Assembly: GCF_055900595.2 (NCBI RefSeq)
Contig: NZ_CM148325.1
Reading direction: 5' to 3' (one strand)
Length of the DNA stretch: 64,000 nucleotides
The notes beneath the pieces were generated by a model. The model was not told the origin of the DNA. It was given only the letters and a program-made list of their open reading frames with translations, and ran no database searches. This document shows, one piece after another, positions 5,755 through 44,659 of this stretch. A program made the translations under genes and the position numbers. Positions within the stretch are counted from its first letter, which is position 1, and every line of letters starts with the position of its first letter.

Positions 5755-6780
5755 TCAGGAATGTAGCGCTGAATGCGCGACAAAAGGTGTTTTCTGTTTG
5801 TGTTTTTTCTCCTGATACATCGCGATATCGGCAGCATGCAGGGCGCTGTCTGCATCGGTCGTTTCAGGATCGACTTCTACTATGCCAAGACTGGCACCAG
5901 GATAATACAAATCAACATCACCTAAGTGATATTCTCCGCGTATTTGCTGTTGAATACGTTCTCGCAGCGATGGAATATCCGCATTCTCATTGTTCAGTGA
6001 AACAACCAAAAACTCATCACCGCCGAGACGACCAATAACTTCGCCATTTTGCTGGAGCGTATTAAGGCGCTCGCCAACCTGAATAAGAAACAGATCGCCA
6101 CTATTATGACCAAAACGATCATTGATTAATTTGAAGTTATCCAGATCGATAAATGCGATCATTATCTTATGGTTAAGATGCCTCGCAAGAGAAAACAGCG
6201 TCGTCAGGTTTTCAAAAATCGCCCGCCGATTCGGTAGCCCGGTTAACGAGTCGGTATACGATTGCGCAATCAGTGCGGCATTTGCTTCGCGCAGCTGTTC
6301 AACCAGCGCCTCTTTTTGAATATATTGTGCAATCAGTCCGGCGAATAGCTGTAAAACCTGTTCCGCGCGTTCACTCCACTGGCGCTTCTCACTGCTGGCG
6401 GCGCAAAGTGTGCCATAGAATGATCCATCCGGTAAGTGAATTGGCGTGCTCAGAAATGTGGTGATGCCAAGATTTCGTGCCGCAACACAGTCGCCCCAAC
6501 GGTCGGGGACTTCATCGCTGAAAAAGCAGTTTTCATCAATGGCGCGTTTGCATAACGAGTAATCCCACGAGACGGTAAAATTCTCCGGGATGTGCATTTT
6601 CTGGCTATTACGGGCAAACATTATATGCTGCAGGCGCGCTTCGACATCCACTTTGGTCAGGTAGGTTGACTCCATATCAGTGACCATTTCCAGCATCTCC
6701 AGAAGCTGTCGGACCAGACTTTCCAGTGACTGTTCTTTGGCAAGGGATTGCGAGACGCGGGCGATAATCTGATCTGACAC
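5755..6780 (-). CDS. dgcP: Diguanylate cyclase (GAF-GGDEF)
   Basis: ORF track 5755-6909 trimmed to GTG start at VSDQIIARVSQ to give 341 aa as recalled; intact RLGGDEF motif. Confidence 0.88.
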   Translation of the reverse strand: MSDQIIARVSQSLAKEQSLESLVRQLLEMLEMVTDMESTYLTKVDVEARLQHIMFARNSQKMHIPENFTVSWDYSLCKRAIDENCFFSDEVPDRWGDCVAARNLGITTFLSTPIHLPDGSFYGTLCAASSEKRQWSERAEQVLQLFAGLIAQYIQKEALVEQLREANAALIAQSYTDSLTGLPNRRAIFENLTTLFSLARHLNHKIMIAFIDLDNFKLINDRFGHNSGDLFLIQVGERLNTLQQNGEVIGRLGGDEFLVVSLNNENADIPSLRERIQQQIRGEYHLGDVDLYYPGASLGIVEVDPETTDADSALHAADIAMYQEKKHKQKTPFVAHSALHS

Positions 6781-10963: not shown

Positions 10964-12454
10964 TCATGAACGGCTGTTTTTGTTCTGCTTATTGACATAT
11001 AAACGCTCATCGGAAGCTTTATACGCATCATGTAACGTATCGTTTTCTTTCATCGCATAAATACCGGAAGAGAAGCCGATCTCTTTCTGCGGCGCGATAT
11101 GTTGCAGACGTTTTTCGATACGTTCAGGCAGTTGTGCTGCAATTTGCGGCGTCGAATCGACAAGAATGATGCAGAATTCATCGCCACCGAGTCGGATGGC
11201 ATAATCACTTTTACGAATCGACTGTTTAATCGCCTGAGCTAATAACGTAATCGCTAAATCTCCTTCCTGATGACCGAGCGTGTCATTTATTTGCTTTAAC
11301 TTGTCCATGTCAATTGCAATAAACATCACCGAAGAACCAGATTGCACCAGTTTTTGCAACCGCTGCTCCAGTTCAGGGGTTAATATTTTGCGATTATACA
11401 GTCCGGTCATCGCATCACTAATATTTTCTCGCGACACATTTTGGTATAAACGGAAGTGCATCCGCACCATATTCAGCAAAATTAACGCCGTCAAAATCCA
11501 GAACAGAACGCTTTTCCACGAAGATGTGATAAAGTAAAGAATATCAATGGATAACGATACACGAATGCCGCCCGGTAAGTCATGGACGTAACTGACATAC
11601 TGGAACAGATTATCTTCGCTCTGGTTGATGATAATGTCGCGCCCAGAATCTGTATCGGTTAGCGTGACATTGAGAAAACGCCAGAGGAGAGGGCGGTCAT
11701 GCGTGTAAAAGATATTCCGCAGATTGTTTTTGTTAATATCCAGCAGCACAATTCCTTTTAGCTGCCCTGCAACATACACTGGCGTCAGCAAACTCATCAC
11801 GTTCTGTTTAGTACGCTGATCCTGGTAAATGCTCGATAATACGGTGCGACCGGTAAAAACTTTTTCAATATCTTTGCGATCGATGCCAATGCTTCCTGAC
11901 TGCAGGAAGGACCAGTTATTCATCGCAAAGTACTCAACATTAACCGGCTCATAAAAATAGACATAGAGGTCATTGAGATCGAGATAATAGTGAAATTTCT
12001 CTTCGGCCATTCCAAGACCTGAACCATAATCATCCTGGTGGCGGTTGCCTTCCACTGCCTGATCAAAAGCGGGTAATAGTGCTGCAGCTTCCACAATTGT
12101 GTCGCATTCAGTGGATGCGGTTTGTAGTGTACCGTGTAAGCCCGTGTACTTATGGGCAGTCAGGTTTAAGCCATGGGTATTATTGGCAGACTCAAAAGCC
12201 TCGCAGATGGTACGCCGCTGTTCTGGCGACACTTCCGACTGCTCAGCAGCGAGAGCGCGCATCACATGCGCGGCAATACTCTGATTTTGATACTTGTCAT
12301 AAAGAAAGGAGGAATCTGCTCTCTGCACGATATAGCGCAGATAGGCACTCATTGCTCTGTCGCTGGCGACAAGTTCAAAAATAAGGAAGGAAGATGTCAG
12401 CACAATGACACTTGCGGCGATAAAATGCCGGAGCATTCTATGGTGCAATTTCAT
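10964..12454 (-). CDS. dgcJ: Membrane-anchored diguanylate cyclase
   Basis: ORF track 10964-12634 trimmed to MKLHHRMLRHF (496 aa as recalled); intact RLGGDEF motif. Confidence 0.88.
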   Translation of the reverse strand: MKLHHRMLRHFIAASVIVLTSSFLIFELVASDRAMSAYLRYIVQRADSSFLYDKYQNQSIAAHVMRALAAEQSEVSPEQRRTICEAFESANNTHGLNLTAHKYTGLHGTLQTASTECDTIVEAAALLPAFDQAVEGNRHQDDYGSGLGMAEEKFHYYLDLNDLYVYFYEPVNVEYFAMNNWSFLQSGSIGIDRKDIEKVFTGRTVLSSIYQDQRTKQNVMSLLTPVYVAGQLKGIVLLDINKNNLRNIFYTHDRPLLWRFLNVTLTDTDSGRDIIINQSEDNLFQYVSYVHDLPGGIRVSLSIDILYFITSSWKSVLFWILTALILLNMVRMHFRLYQNVSRENISDAMTGLYNRKILTPELEQRLQKLVQSGSSVMFIAIDMDKLKQINDTLGHQEGDLAITLLAQAIKQSIRKSDYAIRLGGDEFCIILVDSTPQIAAQLPERIEKRLQHIAPQKEIGFSSGIYAMKENDTLHDAYKASDERLYVNKQNKNSRS

Positions 12455-12634
12455 GATAAATGGCACTCCTTCGGTTAGTGAAACGAGAAAACCAGATAAA
12501 GTTCGATTGCGGCCTGGCACAGGGGCGCTAATTATACTCATCTCTGCGCCGCTGGGGAGGGGAAATTTAGGGGTAATAGTAATAAATTGTATGCAAAAGC
12601 CACGCAAAAAGCATGGCTCTGAATATTTTTGCAC

Positions 12635-14083
12635 TTAAATATGATGAATAATCACTTTGTTGCCCCCCTCGCTTTTCGCTTCGCGTAAGGCTTTATCTGC
12701 TTCCGTCATGACAAGCGAGATATTACGCGTGTCACCCGTTGAAAAAACCGTGCCAATACTGATGGTCATTTGTTCAGGAACATCATATCTGTTACTAAAA
12801 CCGGTCAGGAGTTCGACATTTTTACGCATACGTTCCGCAATGATTTTTGCCTGGGCACTATTGAGTTCGGTAAATAGCAAGCCAAACACCTCACCCTCCA
12901 GTCGCGCTAAAATATCATCGGGGCGGATGCTTTGCTGGATAATATCGACAATTGAAACCAGCACTTTATCACCCACACGATGTCCCCATTGGGCATTGAT
13001 GCGCTTGAACTGATTAATATCAACCAGCATGACACAAAAGTCCTTAACAACAGGTCGCGACAATAATGACTCTACGCTGTTGAAAAAGTAGCGCCGATTA
13101 TAAATATTGGTCAGTACATCATGAACTGCCAGTTTGCTGGAGAGTTGCAGTTCCTGAAAAATGTTATAAATCAGAAAAGACACAACAAACAGTTTACTGG
13201 AAACTTCAATCCCGCGACTGATATACCAGATGGTGTAATTATACTCATCCAGAGTCAGTAGAAGTAAGTTGCAGCATAGCGATGCCAGACATAATAATGC
13301 TATTAACGGCCATAGTTCGCTGGCTAATCGTGTACGCATGATAATAAAGAACAGTAAAAATGCCCACAGACAAACCAATATTTTTGTATAGTTGATTCCC
13401 CAGGTCGCAGTATGGTTGTCCGGACAGTAATCGACGACATACAAAGAATAGTCAGCGTTATAACTGCTCAGATTGTGTGCCAGAAGGGGAAATACTAAAA
13501 AAGGGATCAGCGTCAGTAACAGGATCCCCGTTTTTTTCTTATTGTTGTTAAGAATGTTGTCTTTACCATAACAAAAGAGCGCCAGCGAGGTTAAACAAAT
13601 AAAACTGAGTTGGCGGAAAATATAGAAAATAGAAACATCATTCGACTTTGTCTGGATCAGTGTACTGCCGTTGATTGGTTTATGGATAATTACAATGGTT
13701 TCAACTAAATAGATAAGGCCACTTAAAAATGCAAGGCTTAAAATGAGTGTTGGTAAAATTTGTTTGTTAGTGAAATATTTCATCAACATGAAAAGAAAAA
13801 TGACGGCGTTAAGGAAGAACAAAGCCACAACAACCATCAGGTAATTCATCTGTGGAATGAGTTTTACATTCGTGTTTTCGTTATATAAGGTGGTGATGCA
13901 AAATAAAATTAACGTCAGCAATAAGCTGAAAATAAAAAAGCCTTGAGCTTTTAATTTTTGTGTACCCATAGAAACCATAAAAAGGAGAGCAATGTGAGTG
14001 CTGGATTTTATTGATGGCAGAGATATATGGTTTTGACCAAGATCAATTTTCGGTAACGATGCAAAATAATTAAAGAATAACAC
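12635..14083 (-). CDS. dgcI: Degenerate GGDEF-domain membrane protein
   Basis: 482-aa ORF with many TM helices; signature motif reads EGEVF rather than GGDEF; true start may be a few codons upstream. Confidence 0.82.
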   Translation of the reverse strand: MLFFNYFASLPKIDLGQNHISLPSIKSSTHIALLFMVSMGTQKLKAQGFFIFSLLLTLILFCITTLYNENTNVKLIPQMNYLMVVVALFFLNAVIFLFMLMKYFTNKQILPTLILSLAFLSGLIYLVETIVIIHKPINGSTLIQTKSNDVSIFYIFRQLSFICLTSLALFCYGKDNILNNNKKKTGILLLTLIPFLVFPLLAHNLSSYNADYSLYVVDYCPDNHTATWGINYTKILVCLWAFLLFFIIMRTRLASELWPLIALLCLASLCCNLLLLTLDEYNYTIWYISRGIEVSSKLFVVSFLIYNIFQELQLSSKLAVHDVLTNIYNRRYFFNSVESLLSRPVVKDFCVMLVDINQFKRINAQWGHRVGDKVLVSIVDIIQQSIRPDDILARLEGEVFGLLFTELNSAQAKIIAERMRKNVELLTGFSNRYDVPEQMTISIGTVFSTGDTRNISLVMTEADKALREAKSEGGNKVIIHHI

Positions 14084-14255
14084 GGGTAAATACGTGTTGA
14101 ACGAAGCATTTTTCCGAATGATTGTTTTCTGGAACTAAATTGTGTAAAGGTTGTGCTGTTATATTTAAAGCGATTGTAAGTTAATGTATATAATAAATGA
14201 GATGATTTACAGTGTGCTAAAAAACAGCCAGGCGACGATGACCCGGCTGATAGTT

Positions 14256-15551
<1,296 letters not shown>

Positions 15552-25539: not shown

Positions 25540-26250
25540 AGGAGTGTGGCCGACAGCATATCGGCCACATTTTTGTGCACAGAAAACCCCCAGCTAGGCT
25601 GGGGGTTCCGGAAAGCTTTCAGCTTTGAGCCAGTTATTAAAACCCCTTTTGATTTGTTAAAACACCTTGCGGTCTGGCAACTGCAAGTGTCAAACAAGAA
25701 ATCAAAAGGGGGTCCCAATGGGGGACGAAAAGAGCTTAGCGCACACCCGCTGGAACTGTAAATATCACATAGTTTTTGCGCCGAAATACCGAAGACTGGC
25801 GTTTTACGGAGAGAAGCGTAGGGCGATAGGCAGTATTTTGAGAAAGCTGTGTGAGTGGAAAAGCGTACGGATTCTGGAAGCAGAGTGCTGCGCAGATCAT
25901 ATCCATATGCTTGTGGAAATCCCACCCAAAATGAGCGTATCCGGCTTTATGGGATATCTGAAAGGGAAAAGCAGTCTGATGCTTTACGAGCAGTTTGGGG
26001 ATTTGAAATTCAAATACAGAAACAGGGAGTTCTGGTGCCGAGGGTACTATGTCGATACGGTGGGTAAGAACACGGCGAAGATACAGGACTACATAAAGCA
26101 CCAGCTTGAAGAGGATAAAATGGGGGAGCAGTTATCGATTCCATATCCGGGCAGCCCGTTTACGGGCCGTAAGTAACGAAGTTGAATGCAAATGTCAGAT
26201 CGTATGCGCCTGTTAGGGCGCGGCTGGTAACAGAGCCTTACAGGCGCATT
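25540..26250 (+). mobile_element. IS200 (IS200/IS605 family), about 0.7 kb, boundaries approximate
   Basis: Contains tnpA below; left end carries the characteristic perfect hairpin gtggccgacagcatatcggccac and a second stem cccccagctaggctggggg upstream of tnpA. Confidence 0.8.
25718..26176 (+). CDS. tnpA: IS200 Y1 (HuH) transposase TnpA
   Basis: MGDEKSLAHTRWNCKYHIVFAPKYRR...HIHMLVEIPPK...YIKHQLEEDK; HuH motif; near-identical to recalled IS200 TnpA. Confidence 0.92.
   Translation: MGDEKSLAHTRWNCKYHIVFAPKYRRLAFYGEKRRAIGSILRKLCEWKSVRILEAECCADHIHMLVEIPPKMSVSGFMGYLKGKSSLMLYEQFGDLKFKYRNREFWCRGYYVDTVGKNTAKIQDYIKHQLEEDKMGEQLSIPYPGSPFTGRK

Positions 26251-43408: not shown

Positions 43409-44659
<1,251 letters not shown>

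Follow-up and report, generated by a model that had tools for sequence, protein, structure and literature searches.

The window, that is, the whole stretch of 64,000 nucleotides that was analysed, contains on its minus strand an open reading frame at 12635..14083, whose presence we confirmed. This reading frame is E. coli cdgI, formerly yeaI. The first-pass annotation had called it dgcI, a misnomer: in the published nomenclature YeaI is CdgI, and the name DgcI belongs to YliF (PMC5635695). The gene, two further genes for GGDEF proteins, and the boundary towards the upstream operon are located as follows.

12635..13978, minus strand: cdgI (yeaI) coding sequence, 447 amino acids plus stop; this is its most likely extent, and the one in the RefSeq annotation of identical DNA.
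10964..12454, minus strand: dgcJ (yeaJ), a GAPES1 periplasmic sensor and a canonical GGDEF domain, whose I-site is of the RxxD type (NF040885, 743 bits).
5755..6780, minus strand: dgcP (yeaP), a GAF domain and a canonical GGDEF domain that has QNGE in place of an RxxD I-site.
14225..14249, minus strand: a terminator-like hairpin and T-run 3′ of yeaH, which sets cdgI apart from yeaGH.

Bases 12400-14300 match the chromosome of strain Z0117EC0005, in which the gene is annotated as cdgI, at 100% identity. Their identity to most other E. coli is about 97%, a sign of a divergent lineage. Of these bases, 80% or more are present in 5410 of the 5426 complete E. coli genomes. The CdgI protein of the window shares 99% identity with the main E. 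coli cluster, and its position, yeaH-cdgI-dgcJ, is that in RefSeq, where the gene order is yeaG, yeaH, cdgI, dgcJ, yeaK, yoaI, yeaL, nimR, nimT, yeaO, yoaF, dgcP. The GC content of cdgI is 34-45%, compared with about 50% in the flanks. No RNA element was detected in an Rfam scan of the cdgI locus.

cdgI, dgcJ and dgcP had been described as three clustered GGDEF genes. This applies to cdgI and dgcJ, which are adjacent, with a gap of 180 bp, but not to dgcP, which lies about 4.2 kb off, with seven genes in between. The products of dgcJ and dgcP both read GGDEF, as had been stated. The GGDEF domains of CdgI, DgcJ and DgcP share only 28-31% pairwise identity, and their sensor domains are unrelated; we therefore rejected the notion that the three genes are tandem duplicates, and conclude that they did not arise by recent duplication.

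The 5′ end of cdgI has been drawn in different places. In K-12-type strains the protein is annotated with 491 amino acids, starting from an upstream ATG. In the window, this ATG (position 14109) is out of frame, owing to a 1-bp indel close to the 5′ end, and only a 33-codon open reading frame is found there. The start assumed in the first-pass annotation was instead a GTG, which adds the following segment.

13979..14083, minus strand: 5′ extension of the first-pass annotation (GTG start, 482 amino acids), probably promoter and leader rather than coding sequence.

The end at 14083 reflects just the longest possible open reading frame, this GTG being the first codon 3′ of a stop at which translation could start. 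The window offers only two other in-frame starts, ATG 13978 and ATG 13969. The former, which gives 447 residues, is the RefSeq start on identical DNA; the latter, which gives 444 residues, is the only start codon aligned across all seven orthologous loci. In addition, in-frame stops occur 10-23 codons upstream of the 13978 start in E. albertii, in two further relatives, and in both orthologues with a GGEEF motif. Because of these stops and of the start-codon alignment, translation of cdgI most plausibly begins at ATG 13978 or ATG 13969; the extension annotated in K-12 is probably non-coding. ATG 14109 is thus rejected for the window allele, in which it is out of frame, and is unlikely in general, given the in-frame stops in the orthologues. 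The same stops make GTG 14083 an unlikely start.

Two domains were recognized in the CdgI protein.

13154..13849, minus strand: MASE4 integral-membrane sensor domain (PF17158, E=6.3e-49, profile positions 5-237 of 239).
12656..13129, minus strand: GGDEF domain (PF00990, E=8.8e-45, profile positions 1-161 of 161).

Against TIGR00254, CdgI scores 123 bits, the cut-off being 37. Its AlphaFold2 model has a mean pLDDT of 83.5, and of about 90 across the GGDEF domain. The model features eight long helices within residues 3-285, the last of which extends into the linker to the GGDEF domain. A Foldseek search with this model matched, among others, PleD, WspR, GcbC, DosC and SadC; the target TM-scores for these five were 0.8-0.88. 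As modeled, then, the GGDEF fold of CdgI is intact.

Of the residues of the GGDEF motif, the first two, both glycines, contact GTP, and the next two coordinate the metal and catalyse the reaction. The primary I-site consists of the RxxD motif and, in PleD, R390; R313 is the cross-linking arginine. These residue roles are the subject of the review by Roemling, Galperin and Gomelsky (2013) and of the PleD work of Chan (2004), Christen (2006) and Wassmann (2007). CdgI was placed on PleD by BLASTP and on solved cyclases by HMMER alignments, and the functional columns were tabulated in PleD numbering for 45 homologues. The match of the PleD reference to PleD chains in the PDB spans its 167 residues, and its alignment to 9g86 differs at one position. 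The elements that we located in CdgI are the following.

12884..12898, minus strand: degenerate A-site EGEVF, residues 361-365 (405-409 in K-12 numbering), aligned to PleD G368-F372.
12914..12925, minus strand: I-site RPDD (RxxD), R352-P-D-D355, intact, exactly five residues (ILARL) before EGEVF.
12824..12838, minus strand: AERMR with the partner arginine R383 (PleD R390), from the alignment to PleD.

The translation contains SIRPDDILARLEGEVFGLLF, in which the motif is encoded by codons 12898..12884. EGEVF at the motif position had been read from the DNA before, with an alignment to active GGDEF domains proposed as a check. In this alignment EGEVF falls exactly on the GGEEF of PleD and of the solved cyclases, and the active-cyclase motif GG[D/E]EF is not matched. 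The motif changes, in PleD numbering, are G368E and E371V. Given the roles of the motif residues, CdgI thus lacks two of the four that are essential. Outside the motif, seven of ten further substrate and metal residues are kept, and D329N, D336A and R446G are altered. The positions kept in CdgI are D327, K332, N335, H340, D344, R366, G369, E370, F372 and K442. Position 446 is non-canonical in DgcJ (Asn) and DgcP (Gln) too, and R446G was for this reason given little weight. The I-site is complete: it includes RPDD, R383, and R308, which aligns to PleD R313. A full-text literature search for the string EGEVF returned no match; this motif had already been given for yeaI by Spurbeck et al. (2012).

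Several of these properties have been described for the K-12 protein. According to Sarenko et al. (2017; PMC5635695), E. coli K-12 has a single stand-alone degenerate GGDEF protein, CdgI, whose A-site is degenerate and whose I-site is intact. In that study, the purified K-12 His6-GGDEF domain binds c-di-GMP, as detected by UV cross-linking (Fig. S4B), and the GGDEF domain of CdgI engages other GGDEF domains in multiple strong heteromeric contacts. Overexpression of CdgI was toxic, and the protein was undetectable in standard culture. The authors suggest that CdgI may inhibit cyclases through heteromerisation, perhaps in a manner modulated by c-di-GMP; in their methods, labelled GTP is named next to c-di-GMP as a cross-linking ligand. 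A later article (PMC10459773) refers to CdgI as 'catalytically non-functional' and assigns it to a MASE4-GGDEF family with DgcT and DgcX. That is, the degenerate A-site, the intact I-site and the binding of c-di-GMP by CdgI have been known since 2017, and the name cdgI itself reflects this understanding. Deletion phenotypes of yeaI are also on record in the literature, one report describing a minor phenotype, and cdgI is deleted in Shigella flexneri 2457T.

Other reports regard YeaI as an enzyme. As cited in a later paper, Sanchez-Torres et al. (2011) found that yeaI raises cellular c-di-GMP in BW25113, and Spurbeck et al. (2012) cite that work for 'verified diguanylate cyclase activity' of YeaI. 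Spurbeck et al. also tested WspR, a cyclase, in a ΔyeaI mutant of CFT073, and found that it complemented the biofilm defect in no-salt LB, whereas in glycerol minimal medium it did not. Could CdgI then be a weak or conditional cyclase, perhaps one that works only as half of a heterodimer, with one half-site supplied by a canonical partner? The strong heteromeric contacts of its GGDEF domain (PMC5635695) would be in line with such an arrangement, as would the retention in E. coli of D327 (a metal ligand), E370 (catalytic), N335 and D344 (which bind guanine), and K442. We nevertheless consider this explanation improbable. Shifts of c-di-GMP in vivo can arise indirectly, via partner cyclases, and do not imply intrinsic catalysis, and WspR failed to complement the mutant in the glycerol medium. 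Both G368E and E371V strike essential motif residues, while orthologues on which purifying selection otherwise acts have Asp, Asn or Lys in place of E370. Finally, specialists class CdgI as inactive (PMC5635695, PMC10459773). The literature consulted, in which Sanchez-Torres et al. (2011) was represented by the papers that cite it, yielded no in vitro cyclase assay of CdgI.

To place these substitutions in an evolutionary context, we compared CdgI with its homologues. Every homologue that could be placed on a contig sits between yeaH and dgcJ; these proteins, of 445-448 amino acids, are thus positional orthologues. They include a CdgI clade, made up of E. coli lineages, E. albertii and two further relatives, with 64-99% identity to the protein of the window. 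The A-site in this clade reads EGEVF, EGEEF, DGEVF, EGDVF, EGNVF or EGKRF, the lineage with EGEEF having retained both acidic residues. Position 336 is Ala, Asp or Asn in the clade, and position 446 is always Gly. R359, D362 and R390 of the I-site, again in PleD numbering, are invariant across all 11 sequences of the clade. The next relatives, P0021 from Citrobacter sp. Awk 4 and P0018, share 57-61% identity with CdgI, have GGEEF as their A-site and keep every catalytic residue; they are presumably active cyclases. Because these two syntenic proteins keep GGEEF together with D329, D336 and R446, CdgI descends from an enzyme at the same locus, presumably an active cyclase, whose A-site has been drifting since, with the I-site frozen. 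Such drift among orthologues is expected once catalysis is no longer under selection. It adds to G368E, E371V, D329N, D336A and R446G in support of the earlier reading of CdgI as a protein without cyclase activity.

Estimates of selection indicate that cdgI is maintained under strong purifying selection and is not decaying. dN/dS is 0.04 relative to the K-12-like strain HB101 and 0.08 relative to E. albertii, and is low in both the MASE4 and the GGDEF halves; the value for dgcJ, for comparison, is 0.03. The CdgI proteins of the window and of HB101 differ at 3 of 447 residues, all of them in MASE4, and their GGDEF domains are identical. A relative-rate comparison of degenerate and canonical GGDEF domains with outgroups gave no consistent acceleration, the splitting into domains being unreliable for some of the sequences. 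Truncated cdgI alleles without the GGDEF domain exist in clusters, with a stop after residue 345, a stop near residue 293 or a frameshift at residue 273.

These data bear on a further explanation, in which cdgI is a silent evolutionary relic that is heading for loss and has no present function. The truncated alleles, the deletion in S. flexneri 2457T, the low GC content, the failure to detect the protein in standard culture (PMC5635695) and the minor phenotype of a deletion would all be accounted for. The dN/dS values of 0.04-0.08 in both domains, which extend to comparisons between species, are nevertheless hard to reconcile with a relic, and an I-site that stays invariant while the A-site drifts argues in the same direction. 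So do the near-universal presence of the gene in complete E. coli genomes, its synteny in E. albertii and more distant relatives, the conserved regulatory islands upstream of it (see below), and the recorded deletion phenotypes. We thus regard a relic as quite improbable, slightly more so than a weak cyclase.

The difference between the two sites is also informative as to which ligand might be sensed. It is conceivable that the degenerate A-site senses GTP, as the GEDEF domain of Caulobacter PdeA (CC3396) does, and that the I-site is not a sensor of c-di-GMP. N335, D344, K332, K442 and D327 are kept, and labelled GTP appears among the cross-linking methods of Sarenko et al. (PMC5635695). Unlike the I-site, however, the GTP pocket is without visible constraint, as the A-site varies and R446 is Gly; CdgI has no output domain, such as EAL, that GTP could regulate; and the result reported is the binding of c-di-GMP (PMC5635695). 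This is, in our assessment, the least probable of the explanations considered, and a very remote one.

The region upstream of the revised start contains two elements that may explain when cdgI is expressed.

14033..14046, minus strand: FNR-type box TTGATCTTGGTCAA, with one mismatch to TTGAT-N4-ATCAA, conserved among 7 orthologous loci.
14005..14010, minus strand: −10-like hexamer TAAAAT, 22 nt 3′ of the FNR box; all 7 loci have either TAAAAT or TAGAAT here.

In an alignment of the upstream regions of the seven loci, conservation is poor outside these two islands, and in 3 of the 7 the FNR box is a perfect consensus. The 22-nt spacing puts the center of the box at about −41.5 from a predicted start site near 13998, some 20 nt before ATG 13978. 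Judged by its sequence, this is the geometry of a class II FNR-activated promoter, and suggests that cdgI is induced anaerobically. FNR-type matches in the 64 kb number 6, compared with 3.06 expected, and a single match is not significant alone; the case for an FNR promoter rests on conservation, spacing and published occupancy, not on the match count. As to occupancy, K-12 coordinate 1868475 is the position of an FNR ChIP-seq peak that Myers et al. (2013; PMC3688515) assigned to yeaI, with the motif TTGATCCTGGTCAA and the label "Within yeaI". Occupancy by sigma-70 was higher anaerobically, and no FNR-dependent change in yeaI expression was seen in glucose minimal medium (PMC3688515). A generic sigma-70 scan returned only a weak promoter-like site upstream of cdgI, and a total count no higher than in shuffled sequence. 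Other inputs have been reported for this gene: CsrA represses it (PMC5635695), an SrsR site lies between yeaH and cdgI, and RstA binds to the cdgI promoter in EHEC. These inputs do not conflict with the FNR reading; CsrA, SrsR and RstA, and also H-NS, may mask an effect of FNR.

Taken together, these results lead us to propose, with considerable confidence, that CdgI is an inner-membrane MASE4-GGDEF protein that has lost its cyclase chemistry and serves as an I-site c-di-GMP receptor or scaffold, modulating GGDEF partners. The architecture, the residues, the evolutionary history and the selection estimates behind this proposal come from the present analysis; c-di-GMP binding and heteromeric contacts come from the literature, and were reported for the K-12 protein. 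In the proposed mechanism, a long helix would connect the MASE4 helix bundle in the inner membrane with a GGDEF domain of intact structure, which would no longer make c-di-GMP. Binding of c-di-GMP at the I-site would most likely make CdgI a membrane-anchored receptor or scaffold. By the pairing of its GGDEF domain with theirs, CdgI would modulate other GGDEF proteins, probably as an inhibitor, and c-di-GMP might bridge or gate these contacts. The gene is silent under standard aerobic conditions, and expression of cdgI would probably be conditional, with anaerobic induction through the class II FNR-type architecture upstream. A possible receptor or scaffold role had also been raised in the first-pass annotation; it fits the invariant I-site, the low dN/dS, and the published binding and contact data. 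We can also envisage a more specific form of this proposal, namely that CdgI is an FNR-induced, anaerobic membrane 'anti-cyclase', a former MASE4 cyclase, of a kind that syntenic relatives still have at this locus, that senses c-di-GMP through its I-site and traps further GGDEF proteins in unproductive heterodimers, the 44-residue extension in K-12 being an untranslated promoter. This form is offered tentatively; as a whole it seems to us rather unlikely, though less so than any of the alternatives weighed above.

Beyond what was known of CdgI, the additions made here are modest: the series of orthologues, the estimate of selection, the corrected 5′ boundary and the reading of an FNR-type promoter. 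The orthologues provide a clean natural example of the transition from an enzyme to a receptor, being presumably active in the syntenic relatives, one of them a Citrobacter, and having a drifting A-site and a frozen I-site in Escherichia. An FNR-type promoter inside the annotated K-12 coding region offers a testable hypothesis for the 'still-unknown conditions' of CdgI expression (PMC5635695). The RefSeq product names of cdgI are 'sensor domain-containing diguanylate cyclase' and 'GGDEF domain-containing protein'. Such names, and the several papers that treat CdgI as an enzyme, can cause cyclases to be miscounted and mutant phenotypes to be misread.

The CdgI of the window can be compared with several known systems. 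Its closest counterpart is CdgI of K-12 (YeaI, b1785), which has the same locus, yeaG-yeaH-cdgI-dgcJ-yeaK, the same MASE4 and GGDEF domains, and the same EGEVF and RPDD motifs; the window allele differs by the 1-bp indel that takes the 491-residue start out of frame. The closest paralogues are DgcT (YcdT) and DgcX, which like CdgI are MASE4-GGDEF proteins; their overall identity to it is 36-40%, and that of the GGDEF domain is 46-47%. In contrast to CdgI, however, both have GGEEF and all catalytic residues, and are functional cyclases (PMC10459773). P0021 and P0018 share with CdgI the yeaH-dgcJ locus, the architecture, the FNR-type box and the −10 hexamer, and differ from it in that the canonical GGEEF, D329, D336 and R446 are preserved. 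The principle proposed for CdgI has precedents in PopA of Caulobacter and PelD of P. aeruginosa, which have lost the A-site, bind c-di-GMP at a retained RxxD I-site, and exert their output by interacting with proteins. PopA has receiver domains, and PelD has transmembrane segments and a GAF domain; neither protein is homologous to CdgI outside the GGDEF domain.

The K-12 annotation of cdgI (yeaI), which encodes a MASE4 and GGDEF-domain protein of 491 residues, begins upstream of a conserved start that yields 447 residues. In the window strain, a 1-bp indel places the K-12-type ATG out of frame (13979-14109, minus strand), and in all non-E. coli orthologues in-frame stops are found upstream of the 447-residue start. 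Because of these stops, and of the out-of-frame ATG, the N-terminal extension of K-12 CdgI is probably a mis-annotation. Two conserved elements fall within the K-12 491-residue annotation:

14033-14046, minus strand: FNR-type box, TTGATCTTGGTCAA, immediately 5' of the conserved cdgI start
14005-14010, minus strand: -10-like hexamer TAAAAT, with the FNR-type box 22 nt upstream of it

An FNR ChIP-seq peak labelled 'within yeaI' in K-12 (Myers 2013, PMC3688515) matches this box. Together, the spacing of box and hexamer and the published peak suggest that a class II FNR promoter lies ahead of cdgI and that the gene is induced anaerobically.

The two nearby GGDEF proteins differ in their inhibitory sites. 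DgcJ (10964-12454) keeps an RxxD I-site, namely RKSD, whereas DgcP (5755-6780) lacks one and carries QNGE instead. From these motifs, DgcP, a cytoplasmic GAF protein, is predicted to be the only one of the three neighboring GGDEF proteins without feedback inhibition.

The cdgI gene (12635-14083) is AT-rich: its GC content is 34-45%, whereas the genes on either side have about 50%. Its AT-richness fits silencing by nucleoid proteins and the observed lack of cdgI expression in laboratory culture. Truncated E. coli alleles that lack the GGDEF domain were also observed, in homologue clusters P0015, P0024 and P0025; the lesions comprise one stop after residue 345, another near residue 293 and a frameshift at residue 273 (K-12 numbering). 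In Shigella flexneri 2457T, cdgI is deleted (PMC11327459). The orthologous locus L009, which holds the CdgI orthologue P0011, is 97.7% identical to the window in YeaH and 84% in the MASE4 half of CdgI, but only 64% in the GGDEF half and 67% in DgcJ. This mosaic divergence suggests that a recombination breakpoint may lie within cdgI in the L009 lineage.

Further along, one Rfam match lies between sppA and a SIMPL-domain gene, together with an IS200/IS605 tnpA that it adjoins:

25585-25708, plus strand: STnc490, 146 bits

Collinearity with the closest reference ends near ynjA/ynjB, at about 39723, where a CP4-like island starts:

about 39723-64000: CP4-like island
44468-44590, minus strand: isrC, Rfam, 145 bits
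50642-50711, minus strand: RNA-OUT, Rfam, 97 bits
50704-51912, plus strand: 402-residue ORF adjoining RNA-OUT

It carries a CbtA/YeeU toxin-antitoxin pair and genes for an antirestriction protein, a DUF932 protein, a GTPase and a YadA-like adhesin, along with several IS remnants. RNA-OUT and the 402-residue ORF together resemble an IS10-type element that has inserted into the island. Of the island query, 11% is left uncovered by the best-matching genome, and this putative element probably explains some of that gap. A few chicken and human isolates carry the island at the same site.
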